A stretch of 64,000 bases of DNA from assembly GCA_944358305.1 (NCBI GenBank), contig CALVQK010000005.1, positions 16,385 to 80,384 on the forward strand. The letters are read 5' to 3'. The notes below the pieces were generated by a model, which had not been told where the DNA came from, ran no database searches, and was given only the letters and a program-made list of their open reading frames with translations. Origin of the DNA: an uncultured Bacilli bacterium (GTDB taxonomy: Bacteria; Bacillota_I; Bacilli_A; RF39; UBA660). This document shows positions 7,243 through 16,548 of this stretch, piece by piece (position 1 is the stretch's first letter; the number at the start of each line of letters is the position of its first letter). A program made the translations under genes and the position numbers.

Positions 7243-9006
7243 GTGTTAGTCTTTATTAATATTATAGAGGAAGAAGGAGAGGTAAAAGTGAAAAGACGTG
7301 AGAATGTAGTAATAATAGTAATATTAGTGTTAATGCTAGTAGCAATAATAGGTGTAAGTTATGCAGCTTTTAGCTTTAGTCAGCAAGGTAATACACCAAA
7401 TACAATAACAACAGGATCAATAACAATGACATATACAGAAAGTGATAATAAAATAAGTTTGAATGGGGCCTTACCAACAACAGATAAGACAGGAACAGTA
7501 AGATTAACAGCAGGAGAATATTTTGATTTTAATGTTTCAAGTCAAATAACAGGTGATGTAAATATCAATTATGAGATAAGCGCAAAAGAAGTAGGAGATG
7601 GGACGATAGACGGTTCTAATATCAAACTTTATCTAACCAAACTTAATGATGATGGAACTGAAGAAGCCCTAATGGTACCAGAAGTATATAATGTAGAGGC
7701 TAATGCTAATGATTATACAGGTCGTCCTTCAGGAGAGATGAGTTTATATACAAGTAGCATGAACTCTAGTGAATCTAATAATTATAGACTTAGAATGTAT
7801 GTAGATGAAGGATATAATCCTCAAGGAGATGGAGGTAACCTAACCTTTACAGTACAGATAAATGTGTATGGAAAAGCAGGGGACAAGTATGTACCTGAGA
7901 CAACACAAGATATACTTGAAGATAATGAAGTACAAGTAGAAAAAACGCAGATGTTTGATTATGCCAGTAATGGTAGTTATTTAGAGTCTTTTACACAGCA
8001 AGCACCTCAATATGGAACTGATCCTAGTCAGATTACTAGTGGTGTTTATAGTATAGAAGATGCAGATGGAACAAGTTATTATTATAGAGGAAATGTAACA
8101 AATAATAATGTTCAATTCGGCGAATATACAGAAGATTATTATGTATATGATGATGGATATGGTTCTTATTATCAAAGCTTAGAAAGTTGTTTAGAAGCTA
8201 ATGGTGGTAGTGCAGATTGTACTCGAGTTAAGTTAGCGTCAGCTGGTGATAAAATGTACTGGAAGATAGTAAGAGTAAATGGGGATGGAAGCTTAAGACT
8301 AATATATAATGGAACAAGTGCAACACCTGATTTTAGTGATTTAGCTCATTCGTATGCAGTAGGAATAGCACCATATAATTTAGAGTATAACGATCCAAAA
8401 TATGCAGGATATACTTATGACAATGGAACAGATAGTTTTGCAAAAAGAGAAGTAGATACCTGGTACGAAAATTCCTTAGGAGATACAATATATGATAGTA
8501 AGGTAATGGGTGGAAGATTCTGTAGTGATAGTAGTGGCTATAAACTAGCTAGTGAATATGACTTAAATCCAGTTCTATTTGGAGGAGATATAGAAGGTAT
8601 ATATTTGTATTCAAGTTGGGGTGAAAGATTAGGAGGAAGAGTAAAAAATAGTTTTACAGTTAATACTCCGACATTGAGTTGCCCAGATACAGATGAAACA
8701 TATGGAGGAAGTTATAGACTAAAAGCGGGTCTTATTACAGCAGATGAGTTAGCTTTAGCAGGAGAAAGTTTTGGAGTTGTAGGCAATAGTTATTTAAATC
8801 CTGGCGATTTTGAAATGTATTACTGGACTATGACGCCGGCTGCGTTCACGTATGGTGATGCTTATGTTTGGAATGAGTATGTTAGTCTGTTTAACGGCAA
8901 TGTCGTCAACAGTGGTGACGCCGTGCGTCCAGTTATCAATGTGACAACTGATAACGGGTTTGCTAGTGGAGATGGAACTGCTAGTAGTCCATATGTAATT
9001 TCTTAG
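7243..9006 (+). CDS. Secreted TasA/camelysin-like protein with a SipW-cognate-type signal peptide and a DUF1566-like C-type-lectin-fold C-terminus carrying the DGR variable repeat. Likely true start is GTG at 7288.
   Basis: N-terminus KRRENVVIIVILVLMLVAIIGVSYAAFSF matches the SipW-cognate signal class (basic-hydrophobic-GxxYAxF). RBS aggagaggtaaaaGTG. C-terminus YYWTMTPAAF...NGNVVNSGDAVRPVIN resembles DUF1566-type DGR targets. VR lies at 8834..8932. Confidence 0.7.
   Translation: MLVFINIIEEEGEVKVKRRENVVIIVILVLMLVAIIGVSYAAFSFSQQGNTPNTITTGSITMTYTESDNKISLNGALPTTDKTGTVRLTAGEYFDFNVSSQITGDVNINYEISAKEVGDGTIDGSNIKLYLTKLNDDGTEEALMVPEVYNVEANANDYTGRPSGEMSLYTSSMNSSESNNYRLRMYVDEGYNPQGDGGNLTFTVQINVYGKAGDKYVPETTQDILEDNEVQVEKTQMFDYASNGSYLESFTQQAPQYGTDPSQITSGVYSIEDADGTSYYYRGNVTNNNVQFGEYTEDYYVYDDGYGSYYQSLESCLEANGGSADCTRVKLASAGDKMYWKIVRVNGDGSLRLIYNGTSATPDFSDLAHSYAVGIAPYNLEYNDPKYAGYTYDNGTDSFAKREVDTWYENSLGDTIYDSKVMGGRFCSDSSGYKLASEYDLNPVLFGGDIEGIYLYSSWGERLGGRVKNSFTVNTPTLSCPDTDETYGGSYRLKAGLITADELALAGESFGVVGNSYLNPGDFEMYYWTMTPAAFTYGDAYVWNEYVSLFNGNVVNSGDAVRPVINVTTDNGFASGDGTASSPYVIS
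8834..8932 (+). repeat. DGR variable repeat (VR) within the 3' end of CDS 7243..9006, ending in a GC-rich IMH-like 16-mer gacgccgtgcgtccag.
   Basis: 99-nt alignment to 9119..9217 with 18 mismatches. 17 of them fall at positions where the other copy has adenine. Confidence 0.85.
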
Positions 9007-9118
9007 ATAGAATGAGGCAAATGACTCTTCATTTGCCTCGGGGGATTAAACTGTATGTGATGCAGCGTTCTGCTTTGGTATGCTCGTTCGTTGGATCGCG
9101 GAGTGTGGTGAGTGTTCT

Positions 9119-9217
9119 CGCCGGCTGCGTTCAATAATGGTAATGCTAATGTATGGAATGAGAATGATAATCTGAATAACAACAATGTCAACAACAATAA
9201 TGACGCCGTGCGTCCAG
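9119..9217 (+). repeat. DGR template repeat (TR). It is non-coding, adenine-rich (AAT/AAC at the variable positions) and shares the GC-rich 3' 16-mer with VR.
   Basis: In-frame reading gives SPAAFNNGNANVWNENDNLNNNNVNNNNDAVRPD. AAY codons correspond to ACG/TAT/GAT/GTT/AGT/TTT/GGC/GTC/GGT in VR. Confidence 0.85.
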
Positions 9218-9400
9218 ATTCCTACTAAGGTTAGATTAGATCTAATGCCACCGCATTTTGTCGGCTACGGCTTGCAAATAGAGGAAGTTTGAATGGAAAC
9301 AAGTTTAATTCCCGGGTTATTCCCAAATATATAATATAGATGTTCATTGACTTAGAATAAAGTTCTTGGACTATCCCTATATTTCTTTTGATTATAAAAG

Positions 9401-9430
9401 ATAGTGCTAGTGTACTATCTTTTTTATATG
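9401..9430 (+). terminator. Rho-independent terminator about 185 nt downstream of TR (agatagt..actatct plus T-run).
   Basis: 7-bp stem, short loop, then tttttta. Confidence 0.5.
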
Positions 9431-9711
9431 AGGAAGATATATTTTTGAAAGAAAAATTCTTGACCGATTCTATCTTGTATGATACATTAAAGCTAGATGG
9501 GAGACTTGTAAAAAGATGGAAAAGGAAGGAGGAAGAAAAAAGTTAAAAAAGTATGAATTTTGAAAATTGGATATGTATTAAAATAACAATATTTTAAATT
9601 GAACTAGTGAATTAAGAAAATTGATAGGTATTTTTAAGCCTAATTTTCAAAATTATCTTTTTGCAATAACTTTATGTATTTGATAACTTAATTGCAGAAA
9701 GGAGAAATCTT

Positions 9712-10530
9712 ATGAATAAAGTACCTAGATTTATATCATTAATGGCAGATACAACTGCAAAAGCTTTAATTAAAGATGATAACTATAGATGGTTTTACGA
9801 AGACTTAATAAAATTCAAAACAGGTATTATCTTAAATGGTTATAAAGCAATAGATAATGAGCTTAATACTGGTAATAAAGTTAAGGATTATAGAGCAGAT
9901 ACTATATTTCTAAAAAATAATAATTTAGTTAATATAGAATTTAATCAATTTGTTTATGTTCATACTATGATAAAAAACATTAAATATGCTTTAAGGATGG
10001 CTGGCAACGGTTTTTTACAAGGAAAGGATTATTTTCATAGATTTGTAGTTCAAATAAATCTAAATAATAAGGTAATGAGTAGTAATGTCAAGAAATGGAA
10101 TGAAAAAGATTATAAGTTAGAAGATTATAAATCTAAATTATTTTTAAAAGATATAAGAATAATTACTATAGATTTAAGAAAATATAAAGGTATTTGTTAT
10201 GACGGTACTAATAAATATGAAGCGTATCTATCAATGTTAACAGCGGAGTCGTATGAAGAAATGGAAAAAATAATTGGAGATTTAAAGGAGGGTAAAATAA
10301 TAATGGAAAAGTTAAAAGAATTAGGATTAGATGATGAGTTTGGTATGTATTATGATGCTGAGATAGTACATAGAAAAGAATTAAACTCTGTAAAAAAGGA
10401 GGGCAGAAAGGAAGGTAAAATAGAGACAACTACTTCTATTGCTAAAGTAATGCTAAAAGCTGGGGAGAGCGTTAATAAAATAAAGGAATATACTGGCCTT
10501 TCAGAAAAACAAATAAGTATGCTAATGTAA
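9712..10530 (+). CDS. Rpn-family recombination-promoting nuclease/putative transposase (PD-(D/E)XK, YhgA-like), copy 1.
   Basis: C-terminal EGRKEGKIETTTSIAKVMLKAGESVNKIKEYTGLSEKQISML tail (DUF4351-like TGLS..I..L motif) and N-terminal FKxLF-like region. Confidence 0.65.
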   Translation: MNKVPRFISLMADTTAKALIKDDNYRWFYEDLIKFKTGIILNGYKAIDNELNTGNKVKDYRADTIFLKNNNLVNIEFNQFVYVHTMIKNIKYALRMAGNGFLQGKDYFHRFVVQINLNNKVMSSNVKKWNEKDYKLEDYKSKLFLKDIRIITIDLRKYKGICYDGTNKYEAYLSMLTAESYEEMEKIIGDLKEGKIIMEKLKELGLDDEFGMYYDAEIVHRKELNSVKKEGRKEGKIETTTSIAKVMLKAGESVNKIKEYTGLSEKQISMLM

Positions 10531-10714
10531 GGATGATGCAAAAAGTTAAAAAACTTGTAATTTTTAAAATTGACTATACTTTTAAAGACCAATATCTTAA
10601 ATTGAACTAGCCAATTAAGAAAATTGATAGGTATTTTTAAGATCAATTTATAAAATTGTCTTTTTGCAATATCTTTATGTATTTGATAACTTAATTGCAG
10701 AAAGGAGAAATCTT

Positions 10715-11545
10715 ATGAATAAAGTACCTAGATTTATATCATTAATGGCAGATACAACTGCAAAAGCTTTAATTAAAGATGATAACTATAGATGGTTTTA
10801 TGAAGAGGTTATTAAGTTTAGAACGGGTGTTGACTTGAAAGGTTATCAGTTAATGGATCCTGAACTTAATACTGGTAATAGGGGTAAAGATTATAGGTTA
10901 GATTTAATATTTATCAATAAGACTAAGTTATTTAACTTAGAATTAAATAGGTTTGTTTATCCACATACCTTTATTAAAAGTCTTAAATATGCTTTAAGGT
11001 TAGCGGGCAATGGTTATATTAAAGGAGATCAATATTATCAAAGATTTGTAACACAACTTAATCTAAATTATAAAATAATGAGTGAGAAAGTAAAATGGCA
11101 AAACTCGAGAGATTATAAGTTAGAAGACTGTAAATACAAAGATAAATTAAAAGATATAAGAGTATTAACAACAAATTTATTAGATTATAAGGGAATAGTT
11201 TATGATGGTACTAATAAATATGAAACATATTTATCAATGTTAACAGCTGAATCATATGAAGAAATGGAGAAAATAATTGGAGATTTAAAGGAGGGTAAAA
11301 TAATTATGGAAAAGTTAAAAGAATTGGGACTTGATGATGAGTTTGGTGCAATATATGATGAAGAGATAGTACATAAGATGGAGATAAACTCTGCTCGAAG
11401 TGATGGCAGAAAAGAAGGAAGAAAGGAAGGCAAAATAGAGACAACTACTTCTATTGCTAAAGTAATGTTAAAAGCTGGAGAGAGTGTTAATAAAATAAAA
11501 GAGTATACAGGCCTTTCAGAAAAACAAATAAGTATGCTAATATAG
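10715..11545 (+). CDS. Rpn-family nuclease/putative transposase, copy 2. The true start is the second M; the ORF track start at 10664 lies in the duplicated leader.
   Basis: Same N-terminus MNKVPRFISLMADTTAKALIKDDNYRWFYE and the same C-terminal TGLSEKQISML tail. Confidence 0.65.
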   Translation: MNKVPRFISLMADTTAKALIKDDNYRWFYEEVIKFRTGVDLKGYQLMDPELNTGNRGKDYRLDLIFINKTKLFNLELNRFVYPHTFIKSLKYALRLAGNGYIKGDQYYQRFVTQLNLNYKIMSEKVKWQNSRDYKLEDCKYKDKLKDIRVLTTNLLDYKGIVYDGTNKYETYLSMLTAESYEEMEKIIGDLKEGKIIMEKLKELGLDDEFGAIYDEEIVHKMEINSARSDGRKEGRKEGKIETTTSIAKVMLKAGESVNKIKEYTGLSEKQISMLI

Positions 11546-11654
11546 GTTAATAGTGTTTCTATTCTTTAAAAGTTTTAAATATTTCTTTATAATTTGTAAG
11601 AATATAGAGGAGATAGCGAATATATATTTAAAATAGCTAAAGGAGATAATTATT

Positions 11655-11882
11655 ATGGAAAAGTTAAAAGAATTAGGACTTGATGATGAGTTTGGTATGT
11701 ATTATGATGCTGAGATAGTACATAGAAAAGAATTAAACTCTGTAAAAAAGGAGGGCAGAAAGGAAGGCAAAATAGAGACAACTACTTCTATTGCTAAGAA
11801 TCTTCTTAATATGGGTCTTTCTAAACAAGATGTAATGAAAGCGACAGGTTTATCTAAGAAACAACTAACTATGTTAATGTAG
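11655..11882 (+). pseudogene. Truncated third Rpn copy. Only the C-terminal ~75 aa (DUF4351-like tail) is retained.
   Basis: MEKLKELGLDDEFGMYYDAEIVHRKELNSVKKEGRKEGKIETTTSIAK is near-identical to the tail of copy 1. A terminator hairpin follows at 11908..11930. Confidence 0.6.
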
Positions 11883-12025
11883 ATTGGTGGTGTTTTTTAT
11901 ATATTAAGCAGTTTATGACTGCTTTTTTCATGTTAAAAAAATTACTACCAAAAATTGGTAATTTGTTGTACAATAGTATTTGATAAAAATAGAGTAAGGC
12001 TATAGCGATATTTTGGAGTAAAGGC

Positions 12026-12376
12026 TTGGTGGAATTTATGAAGAAGTATACACCTTTAAATATATATAATTTCTATAAAAGAGATTATGCTAAGTACTTG
12101 TTGCTGGTTAAGAAAAAAGATAAACTTATAACTTATAATACTGACGCTAAAATAGTATCTTATCTTTTTAAAATATATTATTTTGAAGAACTTAGTTTAG
12201 ATCAAAATTTGTTAACAGAGTTATTAGAACTTAAAGAAATACATCATTTTAATATTGCTGTAGTCGTCTCCTCTAAAATAAGAGAATATTATTGTTATAA
12301 AAATAGTGATTATTTGAAACTTAAAAATAATAGTAAAAGATATGTTAAAGAATTAGAGGTGATTTCTAATGGATAA
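12026..12376 (+). CDS. Hypothetical 116-aa protein, translationally coupled to avd (stop overlaps the avd start). Possible DGR accessory gene.
   Basis: Overlapping ORFs 12026..12376 / 12369..12728 / 12709..13824 suggest one operon. Confidence 0.35.
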   Translation: MVEFMKKYTPLNIYNFYKRDYAKYLLLVKKKDKLITYNTDAKIVSYLFKIYYFEELSLDQNLLTELLELKEIHHFNIAVVVSSKIREYYCYKNSDYLKLKNNSKRYVKELEVISNG

Positions 12377-12728
12377 GAATGACTCTTTTAAAATTATGAA
12401 GAATACAAAATTACTTGTTTTTGATGTAGTAGAATTTTCTAAGAATTTTCCTAAAGGAGAAGCGGTGTTAAAGAAAAATCTACAGGAAGAGTTATTTAAT
12501 CTTGTTAAATTATTAAATTCATATATTGTTAATAAAGGAAGTGCAAGAATTAAAGAAAAACATGTTAAAGACTTTATTGTTAGTCTTTCGATGGTAGATT
12601 TTTATTTTGAGTATTTATACTTAAATAAAATTATTAGTTTTAAAAAATATAAAGCTTTGGTTGATGATGTTATTACAATTAGAAAGCTTGCTTATGGAGT
12701 ATTAAAAAATGAAAAAGAGTTATCTTAA
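12369..12728 (+). CDS. avd: Accessory variability determinant (Avd)-like protein (four-helix bundle, 23S rRNA IVS protein family).
   Basis: 119 aa, basic. FSKNFPKGE resembles the KFPKxE(R/K) motif of Avd/IVS proteins. Immediately upstream of and overlapping the DGR RT gene. Confidence 0.6.
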   Translation: MDKNDSFKIMKNTKLLVFDVVEFSKNFPKGEAVLKKNLQEELFNLVKLLNSYIVNKGSARIKEKHVKDFIVSLSMVDFYFEYLYLNKIISFKKYKALVDDVITIRKLAYGVLKNEKELS

Positions 12729-13824
12729 ATATGATGTTTTAGTTGATTATGAAAAAGTATTATCTAGTTATAAAGATGTAGTTAGGAATACAGAACACAA
12801 AGAGAAATTGTTTAAATACAATTTGTTTTTGTCTAGTAATTTAATAGAAATATATAATGATTTAAAGAATAAAAAATATCATCATGGTAAATATAATATA
12901 TTCTTAATTAAAGATCCTAAATATCGGGTTATTATGAGTGAAAACTTAAATGATAAGATAGTTAATCAAATGGTTAGTGAACATATTTTAAAGCCAGTTT
13001 TAGAGCCTAGACTTATAGATAGTAATACTGCTACTAGAAAAGATATGGGAAGTAAACATGCCTTTAATTTATGCAAGAAGTATATTATGAAATTAAAAAG
13101 AGAAAATAAAGATATTTATGTTCTTAAGTTTGATATAAAAAAATATTTCTATAATATAGATCATGATATTTTGTTATCTAAGTTAGAGAAGATCTTTGTA
13201 GATAAGGATATTATGGCTTTATTAAAAGATATTATATATAGTTCTAATCTTGCTTATGTTAATAGGGAAATCGATACAATTATAAATAGAGAATTAAAGA
13301 AAGATTTATCTAGTTATCATAAAAGTGAACTTTTAAAAGTACCTAGATATCAATATCATAAAGGACTTGCTATTGGTAATGTTACAAGCCAAATACTTGC
13401 TATCTTTTATTTGAATAGAATAGATCATTTTATTAAAGAAAATTTAGGTTGTAAGTATTATATTCGTTATATGGATGATGGTATTATTTTTGATTATGAT
13501 AAAGAGAAATTAAAACGTATTAAGAGTGCTATTGAGAAGGAACTTTTAAAAGAAAAATTGGAACTTAATAAAAAAACAAATATTTATAAACTTAGTAATG
13601 GTTTTACTTTTATAGGATATAGATTTATTTTAAGAAATAATAAACTTGTTATTAGAATCAATAATAAAGTTAAGACTAGAATTAAGAGAAAGATTAAATA
13701 TTTGAGTGTTTATGATAAAGAGAAACTTATTAGAGTTAAAGCAAGTTACTATGGTTATATGAAAAGAGCATCTACTAAATTCTTACAGCATAAACTTGCT
13801 ATTAAAGATAAGCAAAGTTATTGA
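12709..13824 (+). CDS. DGR-type reverse transcriptase.
   Basis: RT motifs FDIKKYFYNIDHD, the DGR-specific GLAIGNVTSQ (I/LGxxxSQ in place of QGxxxSP), and YIRYMDDGIIF (YxDD). 371 aa with no maturase or endonuclease domains. Confidence 0.85.
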   Translation: MKKSYLKYDVLVDYEKVLSSYKDVVRNTEHKEKLFKYNLFLSSNLIEIYNDLKNKKYHHGKYNIFLIKDPKYRVIMSENLNDKIVNQMVSEHILKPVLEPRLIDSNTATRKDMGSKHAFNLCKKYIMKLKRENKDIYVLKFDIKKYFYNIDHDILLSKLEKIFVDKDIMALLKDIIYSSNLAYVNREIDTIINRELKKDLSSYHKSELLKVPRYQYHKGLAIGNVTSQILAIFYLNRIDHFIKENLGCKYYIRYMDDGIIFDYDKEKLKRIKSAIEKELLKEKLELNKKTNIYKLSNGFTFIGYRFILRNNKLVIRINNKVKTRIKRKIKYLSVYDKEKLIRVKASYYGYMKRASTKFLQHKLAIKDKQSY

Positions 13825-14427: not shown

Positions 14428-14456
14428 TTGACATTTTCTTTTTAACATGTTATATT
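14428..14456 (+). promoter_or_regulatory. Sigma-A-type promoter (TTGACA, 17 nt spacer, TATATT) driving the repeat RNA and toxN-like gene.
   Basis: ttgacattttctttttaacatgttatatt. Confidence 0.5.
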
Positions 14457-14480
14457 ATGGATACATAAGAGATTATGTTT

Positions 14481-14584
14481 AAAAAAGCTGGTGATTCCAA
14501 CCATAATAGGAACTTAAAAAAGCGGTGATTCCGACCATAACAGGAACTTAAAAAAGAAACTAGAGATGCAAAACTCTAGTTTTT
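14481..14584 (+). ncRNA. Type III antitoxin-like RNA. Two tandem direct repeats (35 nt and 34 nt, aaaaaagc(t)ggtgattccRaccataaYaggaactt) plus a partial third, followed by an intrinsic terminator.
   Basis: Units at 14481..14515 and 14516..14549. Terminator hairpin aactagag/ctctagtt with a T-run at 14558..14584, directly upstream of a ToxN-like ORF. Confidence 0.55.
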
Positions 14585-14646
14585 ATAAATTTCCTATTGC
14601 GAACATTTGTTCTTTTATGTATAATAATTAACTAAGTAAAGGAGGA

Positions 14647-15024
14647 ATGTTTGTGAAACAAGAATTACGTTTAGTTAAAATTGATTCTAATTATTGTGAT
14701 TATTTAAGAAAATATGATTCAAAAGTTCCATATAATTTTGATAGAAAAAGAAATAGACCTTTTGTAGGTGTATTGTTTGAAGTTAATGGGTGTAAATATT
14801 TTGCACCACTTGCTAGTCCTAAGACTAAATATTTAAAAATGCATAATAGTATTGATTTCTTTAAGTTGAAAAACGGAGAACTTGGAGCGATTAATTTTAA
14901 TAATATGATTCCTGTAACATTAAATAATGTTATTATGTTAGAACTTTTGGAAGATAATAAAACAAAAGAGGAAAGAATATATATAAAGATGTTAAAAGAG
15001 CAATTATATTTTGATTGTAAATAA
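14647..15024 (+). CDS. ToxN/AbiQ-family endoribonuclease toxin (type III TA / abortive infection). Likely start is GTG at 14653.
   Basis: KVPYNFDRKRNRPFVGVLFEVNGCKYFAPLASPK closely parallels the ToxN N-terminal core (KVP...F(I/V)G(I/V)..E..G.KY.APL.SPK). AGGAGG lies 9 nt before the GTG. Confidence 0.6.
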   Translation: MFVKQELRLVKIDSNYCDYLRKYDSKVPYNFDRKRNRPFVGVLFEVNGCKYFAPLASPKTKYLKMHNSIDFFKLKNGELGAINFNNMIPVTLNNVIMLELLEDNKTKEERIYIKMLKEQLYFDCK

Positions 15025-15183
15025 AAAACTTCCTATTAATATCTATAATAGATGTTGTAATTTTCTTTTGTTAGAGGAGAAATGTAAAGTTTATAATAAA
15101 TATTTTGAAAATCAAGTATTAAATTGATTTTATTACAGTTATATGTTATAATATAAAGCGTTTTATAAAGGGGTGATGGTACT

Positions 15184-15738
15184 TTGGAAAGAAATATGGA
15201 TGAAGATTTTGATTTGCCTTCAAAAATGCAAAAAATGAGAAAAGATATTGTTTCGGATAGAATAAGAAGTAAAATTAGTATATCTTCTACTGATCTTGAT
15301 CATTTATTAAGAGGGATTAATAAAGATGTATATGATACGATGGATGATTTAGAAGAATGGAATAGTTTAAGAACTAAAATATTATTAAATTTTAATTTAG
15401 GTTTAACTTATGTTTTGCCTAATCGTGAAAATTTTAGAGATATGATATTTGTTGGTAAGCGCAGTGTTGATTTATCTGTTGATAATTATAGAAGAGTATT
15501 AACTGCTGTTGACTTTGTTCATGAGTATAGTATGACAAAAAATATTTATACTTTAATTGATCAGTTATATTATGCCGAAACTCATGCTAGAAATTGCCTT
15601 TATTATATGGATGATTTAAAGGTGAAAATAAATACTAAATACTATGATGGTAAGTTTAATGAAAGATATGTTAAAGAAATGGAAAATAGTAGAGAAAAAG
15701 TTTTATCTTTAGAAAAAAACTATGTGAAGGGGGAATAA
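15184..15738 (+). CDS. Hypothetical protein (184 aa), first gene of a two-gene unit.
   Basis: ORF only. TTG/ATG start with aaagggg RBS. Confidence 0.35.
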   Translation: MERNMDEDFDLPSKMQKMRKDIVSDRIRSKISISSTDLDHLLRGINKDVYDTMDDLEEWNSLRTKILLNFNLGLTYVLPNRENFRDMIFVGKRSVDLSVDNYRRVLTAVDFVHEYSMTKNIYTLIDQLYYAETHARNCLYYMDDLKVKINTKYYDGKFNERYVKEMENSREKVLSLEKNYVKGE

Positions 15739-15740
15739 AA

Positions 15741-16280
15741 ATGCAAGATATGAATCAAGTTGCAGATTTGTATGTTGAAACTACAAAGGCATATTTAGAT
15801 ATTTTAATAGAAAGAGGAGATTTAAAAGCGTGCGAAAAACATTATTTAGAAATATTGGATAAAGTAAAAAAAGAAACTTTAGAAGTTTCTAAAGAGTTTT
15901 CTAAAACTAGAATTATGACTTTAAAAGCTCTTGCTTTTGTTAGTAGAAAACTAAATATTGGTGAAGATTTGAATATTGTAGGTAATGTGGCTCCAAGCCT
16001 TGCGGATACTTTATTAGATAATTATGATCGAGTTAGGAAAGGAATTGCTGTTACTAGTAAAAATATGAGTTATGATAATATTTGTACTTTGATAAGCCAA
16101 AAAGCAGAATCAGATAAATATCTTGTTAGTTTTTCATCATTTCTAGGTGATACAGTTCATGGTTCTGATGGCTTAGGGCCTAGTTACAATTATTATTTAG
16201 CTTGTCAAAATTCTAGAGATAAAATTTTAGAACTTGATTCTAAGTATTGTACAGAAAAGACTAAAGATTTACATTATTAG
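15741..16280 (+). CDS. Hypothetical protein (179 aa), separated from the upstream ORF by 3 nt.
   Basis: ORF only. Confidence 0.35.
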   Translation: MQDMNQVADLYVETTKAYLDILIERGDLKACEKHYLEILDKVKKETLEVSKEFSKTRIMTLKALAFVSRKLNIGEDLNIVGNVAPSLADTLLDNYDRVRKGIAVTSKNMSYDNICTLISQKAESDKYLVSFSSFLGDTVHGSDGLGPSYNYYLACQNSRDKILELDSKYCTEKTKDLHY

Positions 16281-16349
16281 TATTTACAATAAGCTTTTAA
16301 ATGTGGTATAGTAATTTTTGAAATGACTATGATTAAGAAGTAGTAGTAA

Positions 16350-16548
16350 ATGATTTTTTTAAAGAGAGTCTGTGGTTGGTGGAAACAGATAAAAATAGTT
16401 TATGAATTCGTCTTAGGAGTTCCTATAACAAAATTATAGGCGTTGTTTATCGCGTTAAGATTTTAGAGAAATAGTTAATAACTATAAATTAAGGTGGTAC
16501 CGTGTAGAAAACTACGCCCTTAAGTTATAGTTATTTTTTATTTTAGGA
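16350..16548 (+). promoter_or_regulatory. T-box riboswitch leader (tRNA-Phe specifier likely) with terminator/antiterminator, upstream of HAD-pheS-pheT.
   Basis: Conserved T-box sequence aattaaggtggtaccgtg at 16488..16505. Terminator aactataa..ttatagtt plus T-run ends around 16548. A TTC triplet is present in the upstream stem region (gaattcgtc). Confidence 0.7.

Follow-up and report, generated by a model that had tools for sequence, protein, structure and literature searches.

The window, by which we mean the whole 64,000-nt stretch of DNA analysed, carries a chromosomal locus that we hold, with a probability of about 0.85, to be a toxIN-family (ToxN/AbiQ) type III toxin-antitoxin or abortive-infection cassette that is being lost by decay. 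Judged from its sequence, the cassette is true kin of the ToxIN and AbiQ systems and is now a decaying relic, not a working system. A preliminary description of the same DNA had recognized a type III toxin-antitoxin architecture here. The elements are present and the family is real, but the module is not intact: the toxin gene is a truncated, frameshifted pseudogene, and the Ala at its catalytic Ser/Thr position also counts against an intact module.

Family assignment

The reading of the ORF as ToxN/AbiQ-like was borne out by profile searches, which matched it to Pfam ToxN_toxin PF13958 with an E-value of 1.9e-32 and 113 bits (cut-off 25), its sole significant Pfam match, and to the PADLOC AbiQ model at 1.1e-26. 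Among solved proteins, sequence matches were found to ToxN_Bt (4ATO, E 2.7e-23), ToxN_Pa (2e-17) and AbiQ (1.7e-10). An AlphaFold2 model, built from a full-length allele and not from the window ORF, had a pLDDT of 88.8 and matched 4ATO, 2XD0, 7D8O and 4GLK with TM scores of 0.72-0.77, as against 0.48 for CptN 4RMO (E 0.04, 14% identity); the HMM search and the structure prediction that had been proposed as checks were thus both positive. Because the window copy covers only positions 1-115 of the 159 in the Pfam profile, these profile and structure matches are best taken to establish homology only. The preliminary description had missed this partial coverage, as well as the premature stop at 15024.

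We judged toxIN membership by the criteria of Blower et al. 2012 (PMC3401426), in which an upstream promoter is preferred but not strictly required. The locus has a toxin homologous to ToxN/AbiQ, an upstream repeat array, a terminator, a promoter by consensus match and an H-type pseudoknot in each repeat; it does not have an intact, catalytically competent toxin (Lys33, Thr52, Ser53 and Lys55 in ToxN numbering, and the full C-terminal helices). We therefore file it, as far as the sequence allows, as a decayed member of toxIN by descent.

The subfamily, previously called ambiguous, is toxIN, nearest to B. thuringiensis ToxIN, and not cptIN. Repeats of the toxIN family are 31-62 nt long and present in 1.9-5.6 copies, and units of cptIN and tenpIN are 40-48 nt and 39-57 nt long (PMC3401426 Table 2); the 34-nt unit lies inside the first range and outside the other two. 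We rejected cptIN on the unit length (34-35 nt) together with the poor fold match to CptN, and tenpIN on the unit length together with the single significant Pfam match. A count of about two repeats had been taken as cptIN-like, but the count is a derived, shrunken one: a full-length allele from the same species has 3.3 repeats, and relatives typically have 3.2-3.3.

Promoters, leader hairpin and terminator

The elements that flank the repeat array on either side, all on the forward strand, are as follows.

14428..14456, + strand: toxI promoter, with -35 TTGACA at 14428..14433, a 17-nt spacer and a TG-extended -10 TATATT at 14451..14456
14463..14478, + strand: 5' leader hairpin ACATAA-GAGA-TTATGT, a GNRA tetraloop on a 6-bp stem where the transcript is predicted to begin
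14555..14588, + strand: intrinsic terminator, an 11-bp stem (14555-14565/14574-14584) with an 8-nt loop and a U-rich tail
14597..14625, + strand: candidate internal promoter TTGCGA-17-TATAAT between terminator and toxN, 10 of 12 consensus matches

The TTGACA-17-TATATT promoter had been noticed before, and a consensus scan agreed, finding 11 of 12 matches and a TG before the -10 hexamer. Its TTGACA and TGTTATATTAT blocks are conserved in relatives L006-L012 and in all alleles of the same species, a pattern that suggests a functional promoter. Upstream of the first repeat, a 6-bp GNRA-capped hairpin occurs in 49 of 79 related loci, compared with 1.5% of shuffled controls, and its stems covary (ACATAA/TTATGT, ACTTAA/TTAAGT, GCATAA/TTATGC, GCTTAA/TTAAGC); it may serve as a 5' stabiliser. 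The strong terminator of the preliminary description was confirmed. The hairpin, which is followed by UUUUUAU, folds at -12 kcal/mol with z = -5.4, and none of 200 shuffled sequences folds as well. All 83 of 83 related loci have a homologous ACTAGAG..CTCTAGT hairpin and T-rich tail (6 or more T within an 11-nt span that takes in the last 3 stem bases) between repeats and toxN.

The candidate internal promoter contains the palindrome AACATTTGTT. Its hexamers are conserved and its spacer is variable in L006-L012, and similar elements are found in L019, L042 and L049, so that a promoter function seems plausible; in the most decayed alleles the -10 is altered. To our knowledge, neither the 5' GNRA hairpin nor a promoter between terminator and toxN has been described as a regulatory feature of ToxIN. 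If both are regulatory, the toxin:antitoxin ratio in this clade would not be set by terminator read-through alone.

The ToxI repeat array

Tandem Repeats Finder reported a repeat at 14479..14556 with period 34, 2.3 copies, 93% matches and a score of 135, in agreement with the two tandem repeats and 7-nt partial third that had been noticed. No other tandem repeat of the 64-kb window scores as high or has a period above 27: six more were reported, with scores of 50-73. The units and their pseudoknots are placed as follows.

14481..14515, + strand: toxI repeat unit 1, 35 nt with an A6 tract (Tandem Repeats Finder)
H1 14489-14492/14500-14503 and H2 14495-14499/14507 + 14509-14512, + strand: unit 1 pseudoknot (covariation)
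14516..14549, + strand: toxI repeat unit 2, 34 nt (Tandem Repeats Finder)
H1 14524-14526/14534-14536 and H2 14529-14533/14541 + 14543-14546, + strand: unit 2 pseudoknot (covariation)
14550..14556, + strand: partial third unit AAAAAAG (0.3 copy), which gives unit 2 its 3' A-tract flank

Instead of the four differences counted earlier, the two units differ at three positions, by one extra T and two substitutions. A14499 and T14507 in unit 1 correspond to G and C in unit 2, a compensatory pair, and unit 2 is the same as the consensus unit of the closest relatives, whose arrays end in the same partial unit AAAAAAG. Repeats of 33-40 nt lie upstream in 83 of 86 related loci, the remaining three being without upstream DNA.

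A test for pseudoknot-forming repeats, also among the checks proposed, was positive: in 56 distinct 34-nt units from relatives the covarying positions form an H-type pseudoknot of the kind known from ToxI RNAs. MAFFT on all 148 distinct units put gaps at the ends and not in the loop, and the pair count was therefore restricted to the 34-nt units, which align without gaps. In statistics that rest on phylogenetically related units, 88.5% of cells were paired compared with 77.4% in shuffles (0 of 500 reached the observed value), double-change cells numbered 64 versus 22, and the covariation score was 0.354 versus at most 0.078 for slid registers. Individual pairs illustrate this: pair 10-22 is GC in 38 units, AU in 16 and GU in 2; pair 12-20 is UA in 30, CG in 20 and UG in 5; pair 19-27 is GC in 30, CG in 17, GU in 2 and AU in 1. 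A simple hairpin, TGG/CCA versus CGG/CCG, drawn from the two window units, was dropped because the covarying pairs of the relatives are GGT/ACC and CCN/N(A)GG, those of the pseudoknot. Folding single units by minimum free energy was uninformative, with z about 0, as expected for a pseudoknot. A search of the repeat region against Rfam at a permissive E-value returned neither ToxI nor any other credible family; the best match, sraA, scored 22.7 bits where the gathering score is 56, was driven by the terminator and was rejected.

The toxin gene

The toxN gene lies in two fragments in different frames.

14640..14645, + strand: ribosome-binding site AGGAGG, 7 nt before the GTG at 14653, read from the sequence
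14653..15024, + strand: toxN 5' fragment, 120 native codons followed by Asp-Cys-Lys and a premature stop, carrying Ala54 (GCT)
15012..15013, + strand: deletion junction, net 53 nt missing relative to full-length alleles (alignments A1 and A3)
15017..15127, + strand: 3' remnant of toxN in another frame than the 5' fragment (+1), encoding residues 140-175 with the conserved RCCNF.LLEEKC motif

Translation most likely starts at GTG 14653 and not at ATG 14647; the public collection holds the 123-aa GTG-start product (P0121) and not the 125-aa ATG-start form. By tblastn, residues 1-120 of the full-length protein P0001 map to 14653..15012 and residues 140-175 to 15017..15124 in frame 2 with 89% identity; the 3' remnant also matches Pfam profile positions 139-159 (E 0.0056). 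Residues 121-139 are thus gone with the net 53-nt deletion, and the final 36 codons are shifted out of frame. Direct repeats AATTATATTT of 10 nt, 51 nt apart, flank the lost segment in full-length alleles, which suggests a slippage deletion at the repeats and a further 2-nt loss.

Truncation costs the protein the invariant R123, R151, C152, C153, L157, L158, E159 and K161, the likewise invariant RCC..LLE.K motif and three C-terminal helices (placed from the model). Gln117 and the MazF-like beta core are retained. Read from its frames, the ORF ending at 15024 is a truncated toxN pseudogene and its toxin is dead, although residual RNA binding or activity of the truncated ToxN is formally conceivable. 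Whether partial type III toxins keep activity is unclear according to Blower et al. 2012 (PMC3401426).

Position 54 is Ala in every allele of this species, full-length ones included, and Ser or Thr in 110 of 111 homologues. It corresponds to ToxN Thr52 and AbiQ Ser51, where Thr52Val abolishes the toxicity of E. coli ToxN (PMC8860590) and Ser51Leu the RNase activity of AbiQ (PMC5086642); since those mutations are Thr to Val and Ser to Leu, the effect of Ser to Ala is argued by analogy.

Alleles of the same species

Metagenome contigs of the same species hold a nested decay series at this locus. The full-length toxN allele encodes 175 aa and has 3.3 repeats, the three full units being seen in L106, the only full-length locus with a complete upstream region. 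At least 18 contigs carry the window allele, which has the 53-nt deletion and 2.3 repeats, and two full units are found in every 53-nt-deletion locus with a complete upstream region (the window and 7 loci), the second unit of L091 being degenerate. An allele with both the 53-nt and an 11-nt deletion has one repeat unit in 10 of 10 loci; it is the most frequently observed allele, and 57 blocks of the collection list it. P0126 has the 53-nt deletion too, on a different background. Repeat copy number may be mis-assembled from short-read metagenomes, but here it consistently tracks the allele class.

That the locus is an orphan antitoxin, its ToxI RNA retained against the ToxN of a paralogous locus or of incoming mobile elements and phages as anti-addiction or immunity, is improbable. 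Full-length and truncated alleles do not differ in promoter, leader hairpin, the two perfect units or terminator, and cross-neutralisation is plausible because the ToxI core is unusually conserved across toxins that are only 55-77% identical; one related MAG, Lapin-033__bin60, even has two toxIN loci (L036 and L076) on different contigs. Against this, the unit number falls with toxin decay from 3 to 2 to 1, and in the most decayed alleles the H2 of the last unit is weakened (GGATTT for GGAACT, with G.U for G-C). In addition, the precursor would go unprocessed without ToxN, the specificity of ToxI RNAs for the cognate toxin is high as a rule (PMC5086642), and no second toxN or ToxI-like unit was found within the 64-kb window.

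Less probable still is a functional type III toxin-antitoxin or abortive-infection module with a naturally short toxin and a two-repeat antitoxin. Such small systems have precedents, as the toxIN range reaches down to 1.9 repeats and to 70-aa toxins (PMC3401426) and 1.8 antiQ repeats suffice to neutralise AbiQ (PMC5086642), and all cis elements in the window are intact. However, the C-terminus that the ORF lacks is encoded immediately downstream in another frame, which marks a disrupted gene and not a short one, and the loss of invariant residues and of three helices, together with the Ala at the catalytic position, argues the same way. The most frequently observed allele moreover adds a second frameshift and has less antitoxin, a combination that would be lethal were the truncated protein toxic.

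A sequencing or assembly artefact, that is a collapsed repeat or mis-join at the AATTATATTT direct repeats that flank the deleted segment in full-length alleles, can be dismissed, since the exact 123-aa product recurs in independent samples and different assembly sources (ENA metagenome assemblies and Logan assemblies), a recurrence across samples and assemblers that argues against error, the same deletion is found in the further-decayed allele, and a simple collapse would take 51 nt and not 53.

Proposed course of decay

We return to the preferred reading, a toxIN cassette in decay. Going by the characterised family, the ancestral locus would have had a strong promoter giving a transcript that starts in the GNRA-capped hairpin and then carries about 3.3 repeats of the 34-nt unit, the terminator passing only part of the transcription to toxN and the second promoter perhaps adding to toxN expression. 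ToxN, a MazF-like endoribonuclease, would release 34-nt H-type pseudoknots from this precursor by cutting within the A6 tracts; each of them would bind ToxN and keep it inactive until a phage infection disturbed the balance.

In this lineage the active-site replacement of Ser/Thr by Ala would already have been present before the truncation. The array then appears to have been contracting from 3.3 copies to the 2.3 of the window and to 1 in the most decayed alleles, as there was no toxin left to neutralise. With promoter, leader hairpin, two ToxI units and terminator intact, unprocessed ToxI RNA may still be made, probably as a residual RNA without function; the same intact elements could alternatively mean retention, and the surviving unit may be an expressed orphan RNA able to neutralise related ToxN.

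The allelic series could conceivably be a natural record of the loss of a type III module without killing of the host, in which Ser-to-Ala came first, the antitoxin-binding C-terminus was lost next and the array contracted step by step after that. That the series is such a record and that, jointly, the GNRA hairpin and the internal promoter are new regulatory features of ToxIN is a doubtful proposition, if less so than the alternatives above.

Comparison with known systems

ToxIN_Bt of B. thuringiensis plasmid pAW63 is the best sequence match of solved structure (fold TM 0.76). Its antitoxin has a unit of equal length, 34 nt, in about three copies (the literature gives 2.9, and a B. thuringiensis plasmid has 3.1) and the same layout of A6 tract, GGTG..ACC helix, CC/GG helix and H-type pseudoknot, and the A-rich tract in the window fits the ToxN_Bt cleavage preference A^AAAA (PMC7781912). 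Protein identity is only about 36%, however, and unlike plasmid-borne ToxIN_Bt the window locus is chromosomal, belongs to uncultured low-GC gut Bacilli/'Tenericutes', has the GNRA leader hairpin and the candidate promoter between terminator and toxN, and encodes a truncated toxin with Ala at the Thr52 equivalent.

AbiQ/antiQ of Lactococcus lactis (4GLK) falls in the same Pfam and PADLOC family (fold TM 0.72) and likewise has repeats (35 nt, 2.8 copies), a terminator and then the toxin, which cleaves in an A-rich tract. Of the four solved ToxN-family proteins it is the furthest removed (26% identity), and it is a functional plasmid-borne abortive-infection system, whereas the window copy is a pseudogene. 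ToxIN_Pa of Pectobacterium atrosepticum pECA1039 (2XD0/2XDD) and E. coli ToxIN (7D8O) share the fold (TM 0.74-0.77), the locus logic and the active-site motif APL(T/S)SPK, but their units are 36 nt long and number 5.5, their cleavage sites are AA^AU or GAAAU, only a single promoter is described for them, and identity at the protein level is 30-34%. The partial toxins of Blower et al. 2012 (PMC3401426) are likewise shortened ORFs behind repeat arrays and terminators, mostly cptIN with full repeat sets and of unknown status; unlike those cases, the truncation in the window is shown by same-species alleles to be a deletion and frameshift with array shrinkage.

These findings leave the understanding of how type III systems work unchanged. 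For annotation, the ORF should be recorded as a toxN pseudogene and the locus as a degenerate toxIN cassette, not as an active defence system. Alleles with three, two and one units are a clear case of selection being relaxed on an RNA antitoxin after toxin inactivation, and their nesting makes the order of events in toxin-antitoxin loss testable. The strikingly conserved ToxI core, terminator and leader provide a large natural data set for RNA-protein co-evolution. Related ToxN toxins are very widespread in this gut clade; uncultured gut Bacilli/'Tenericutes' very commonly carry this toxIN clade, and in species-representative genomes a relative is encoded by at least 579 stretches.

Neighbouring genes

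The downstream ORFs 15184..15738 and 15741..16280, which had no PADLOC, Pfam or NCBIfam match, were rejected as parts of the system, as their presence is confined to loci of the same species, and no other species has them next to toxIN. The upstream reverse transcriptase was likewise rejected, since some strains have a different gene there with toxIN unchanged. This reverse transcriptase looks like a component of a diversity-generating retroelement.

A degenerate toxIN cassette

The locus is a degenerate toxIN cassette, a decaying relic of an already known kind of system. The preliminary description of a type III toxin-antitoxin module is right as to descent, but here the toxin gene is pseudogenised and the antitoxin array is contracting. 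The promoter, repeats, terminator and ORF that it described are all present in the window.

Features of the toxIN locus
14428..14456, toxI promoter, TTGACA-17-TATATT, 11 of 12 consensus positions, TG preceding the -10 hexamer
14463..14478, GNRA hairpin ACATAA-GAGA-TTATGT at the predicted transcript 5' end
14481..14515, ToxI unit 1, 35 nt
14516..14549, ToxI unit 2, 34 nt
14550..14556, AAAAAAG, start of a third ToxI unit
14555-14565 paired with 14574-14584, terminator hairpin, then UUUUUAU; -12 kcal/mol, z = -5.4
14597..14625, second promoter-like site, TTGCGA-17-TATAAT, between terminator and toxN
14653..15024, toxN ORF

As the preliminary description had suggested, the ORF was searched with HMMs, and it matched Pfam ToxN_toxin (PF13958, E 1.9e-32) and the PADLOC AbiQ model (1.1e-26). 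The structure prediction it also suggested, run on the full-length allele of the same species, gave TM scores of 0.72-0.77 to the solved ToxN_Bt, ToxN_Pa, E. coli ToxN and AbiQ, and only 0.48 to CptN. Sequence matches of this allele to the solved structures were 2.7e-23 (ToxN_Bt, 4ATO), 2e-17 (ToxN_Pa), 2.1e-16 (E. coli ToxN) and 1.7e-10 (AbiQ). The subfamily had been called ambiguous; we assign it to toxIN, since a 34-nt unit lies within the range of that family only (toxIN, 31-62 nt and 1.9-5.6 copies; cptIN, 40-48 nt and 1.9-3.4; tenpIN, 39-57 nt and 1.9-3.0; Blower et al. 2012, Table 2, PMC3401426).

Relatives are encoded in at least 579 stretches of species-representative genomes. The best 80 of these are at most 77% identical and nearly all from MAGs of uncultured gut Bacilli/'Tenericutes'. 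Among annotated plasmid or phage proteins, the closest relatives reach no more than 40% identity. Members of this clade already carry the NCBI name 'type III toxin-antitoxin system ToxN/AbiQ family toxin'. The chromosomal context of the cassette differs between species, as expected of a mobile defence island. In a different species (L039, 2889..4975; ToxN 59% identical), pheS (66% identical to the window pheS) likewise follows toxIN at a distance of a few hundred bases, and the two species may share an insertion neighbourhood.

The toxin gene is broken

The likely toxN start is GTG 14653, 7 nt downstream of AGGAGG; the public collection holds the 123-aa GTG-start product and lacks the 125-aa ATG-start form. 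The ORF covers only positions 1-115 of the 159 in PF13958; positions 139-159 match the next frame, in a 38-codon ORF (15011..15127). The nearest database protein, P0001, has 175 aa and is 98% identical across the matched part; by tblastn, frame 1 carries its residues 1-120 at 14653..15012, and frame 2 carries residues 140-175 at 15017..15124. Alignment with two full-length loci, the P0001 contig (L001) and L106, places a net absence of 53 nt after 15012. Direct repeats AATTATATTT, spaced 51 nt apart, flank the lost segment in full-length alleles, and the loss looks like a slippage deletion with 2 nt more removed. AlphaFold2 modelling of the full-length protein (pLDDT 88.8) places helices at 105-123, 125-140, 146-149 and 155-174, and by this model the last three are missing from the window product. 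Also missing are R123, R151, C152, C153, L157, L158, E159 and K161, which are invariant among 40 homologues. The window toxN is a pseudogenised toxin gene.

A decay series within the species

The 90%-identity cluster of P0001 was divided into three product classes, which share one chromosomal slot: frr, toxIN, two unknown ORFs and a T-box HAD-pheS operon.

Product classes of toxN in the species
Full-length, 175 aa: P0001, P0124 and P0129; 6 contigs
Window allele, 123 aa: P0121, identical to the window product; at least 18 contigs
Split, 43 + 78 aa: P0122 with variants; 57 blocks of the collection list this class

An artefactual truncation was rejected, the exact 123-aa product occurring on those contigs from independent samples and assemblers. 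We aligned the window with 24 same-species loci, 25 sequences in all, and scored them by script. The full-length allele has three full ToxI units (in L106, the sole full-length locus with complete upstream DNA). Alleles with the 53-nt deletion have two in every case with complete upstream DNA (the window and 7 loci), the second unit being degenerate in L091, a contig at 2.7x coverage. The allele with an additional 11-nt deletion has one unit in 10 of 10 loci, half of which also have a degraded candidate internal -10 hexamer. On this alignment the truncation appears as one step of a nested decay series, and the series is itself evidence that the truncated product would be harmless, because a still-toxic protein could not bear stepwise loss of its antitoxin.

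Another truncated 123-aa allele of the cluster, P0126, has 'EKN' at 101-103, typical of full-length alleles, where the window has 'EDN'; so either recombination moved the 53-nt deletion to a different background or it arose more than once. In one sample (L100, 2935..4332) an inserted minus-strand UPF0236-family transposase gene separates the toxN remnant from the two unknown ORFs.

The active site may have failed earlier. Ala54, Ser55 and Lys57 align (HMMER) with the ToxN_Pa active-site residues Thr52, Ser53 and Lys55; E. coli ToxN loses its toxicity with Thr52Val (PMC8860590), and AbiQ RNase activity is abolished by Ser51Leu and kept in Ser51Thr (PMC5086642). Of 111 aligned full-length homologues, 103 have Ser and 7 have Thr at position 54, with Ala confined to this species cluster, where codon 54 is GCT in all alleles, full-length included. 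By analogy with these Thr-to-Val and Ser-to-Leu mutations, which differ from the Ser-to-Ala change here, attenuation of the toxin probably preceded its truncation. Attenuation first would explain how deletion of antitoxin-contacting helices was survivable.

The toxI repeats and their pseudoknot

Tandem Repeats Finder reports the array at 14479..14556 (period 34, 2.3 copies, 93% matches, score 135) as the top tandem repeat of the entire window (27.8% G+C); six others score 50-73 with periods of at most 27. Arrays of 33-40 nt, usually 3.2-3.3 copies with consensus AAAAAAGCGGTGATTCCGACCATAACAGGAACTT, precede toxN in 83 of 86 loci examined, the other three being without upstream DNA. Rfam has no family matching the repeats.

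The pseudoknot test named in the preliminary description used 56 distinct 34-nt units in a gap-free alignment, with structure ........((((..[[[[[))))...].]]]].., and supported the fold. Paired cells made up 88.5% against 77.4% in shuffles, none of 500 of which attained the observed value; double-change cells numbered 64 against 22, and the covariation score was 0.354 against 0.173 in shuffles and at most 0.078 in slid registers, counts that are not independent events as the units share descent. Pair 10-22 is GC in 38 units, AU in 16, GU in 2 and unpaired in none; pair 12-20 is UA in 30, CG in 20 and UG in 5; pair 19-27 is GC in 30, CG in 17, GU in 2 and AU in 1. Apart from one extra T, two substitutions separate the window units, both on pair 19-27 and compensatory (A14499/T14507 in unit 1, G14533/C14541 in unit 2). 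From this covariation the window repeats are predicted to encode a ToxI-type H-type pseudoknot with A-rich tails, the same as in the crystal structures of ToxI_Pa and ToxI_Bt, whose tails are single-stranded (PMC5086642). A ToxI from a B. thuringiensis plasmid (34 nt x 3.1) has the A6 tract, GGTG..ACC and the CC/GG core in common with the window repeats. Since ToxN_Bt cuts A^AAAA and AbiQ A^AAA (PMC7781912), the A6 tract is a probable processing site.

Units are position-specific in the related arrays upstream of toxN (L006-L085). The first is mostly GCTGGTG or GCTAGTG, the extra T giving a 4-bp H1 (the first pseudoknot helix) as in window unit 1, and H2, the second helix, is often degenerate in the last full unit (CAGTGAAC). 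Units inside a single array may differ by compensatory changes, as in L016.

Terminator, leader hairpin and candidate internal promoter

None of 200 shuffles folds as well as the terminator hairpin, and ACTAGAG..CTCTAGT with its T-rich tail is kept in 83 of 83 loci. A GNRA-capped 6-bp hairpin follows the -10 hexamer and precedes the first repeat in 49 of 79 loci (1.5% of shuffled controls); its stems covary among related loci, and it may be a 5' stabiliser.

The candidate internal promoter keeps its hexamers with a variable spacer in L006-L012, and more distant loci have like sites. It remains a candidate because AT-rich DNA commonly yields promoter-like matches (15 found against 7.2 expected in a consensus scan). 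If functional, toxN expression would not be by read-through alone, unlike in the ToxIN_Pa model. A palindrome, AACATTTGTT, at 14603..14612 overlaps its spacer and the end of its -35 hexamer; kept in L006-L012, with like sequences in L042 and L049, it could be an operator.

Neighbourhood of the locus

A T-box leader, the sole window match at the Rfam gathering score, precedes the HAD-hydrolase and pheS genes. The two ORFs between toxN and this leader have no match in Pfam, PADLOC or NCBIfam; among the fetched loci they occur in same-species loci only and have no toxIN linkage in other species. They are adjacent, of about 180 aa, and weakly similar to each other (24% identity, E 8e-4).

Neighbouring features
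7243..13824, diversity-generating-retroelement-like cassette
8834..8932 (3' end of ORF 7243..9006) and 9119..9217, 99-nt repeat pair, 82% identity
9516..11881, tandem duplications of about 1003 nt (families D1-D4, 71-95% identity)
12369..12728, Avd-like ORF (NCBIfam DivGenRetAVD, E 2.5e-4)
12709..13824, reverse transcriptase
15184..15738 and 15741..16280, the two ORFs
16320..16524, T-box leader (Rfam RF00230, 119.8 bits)

Mismatches in the 99-nt pair fall mostly where the second copy has A, a VR/TR-like pattern. The duplications span paralogous ORFs 9712..10530 and 10664..11545, in the stretch that separates the TR-like repeat from the reverse transcriptase. DNA upstream of frr is strain-variable, since in two same-species loci (L096 and L098, 396..1997) a 533-aa ORF with no Pfam match replaces the reverse-transcriptase cassette (window 12026..13824).
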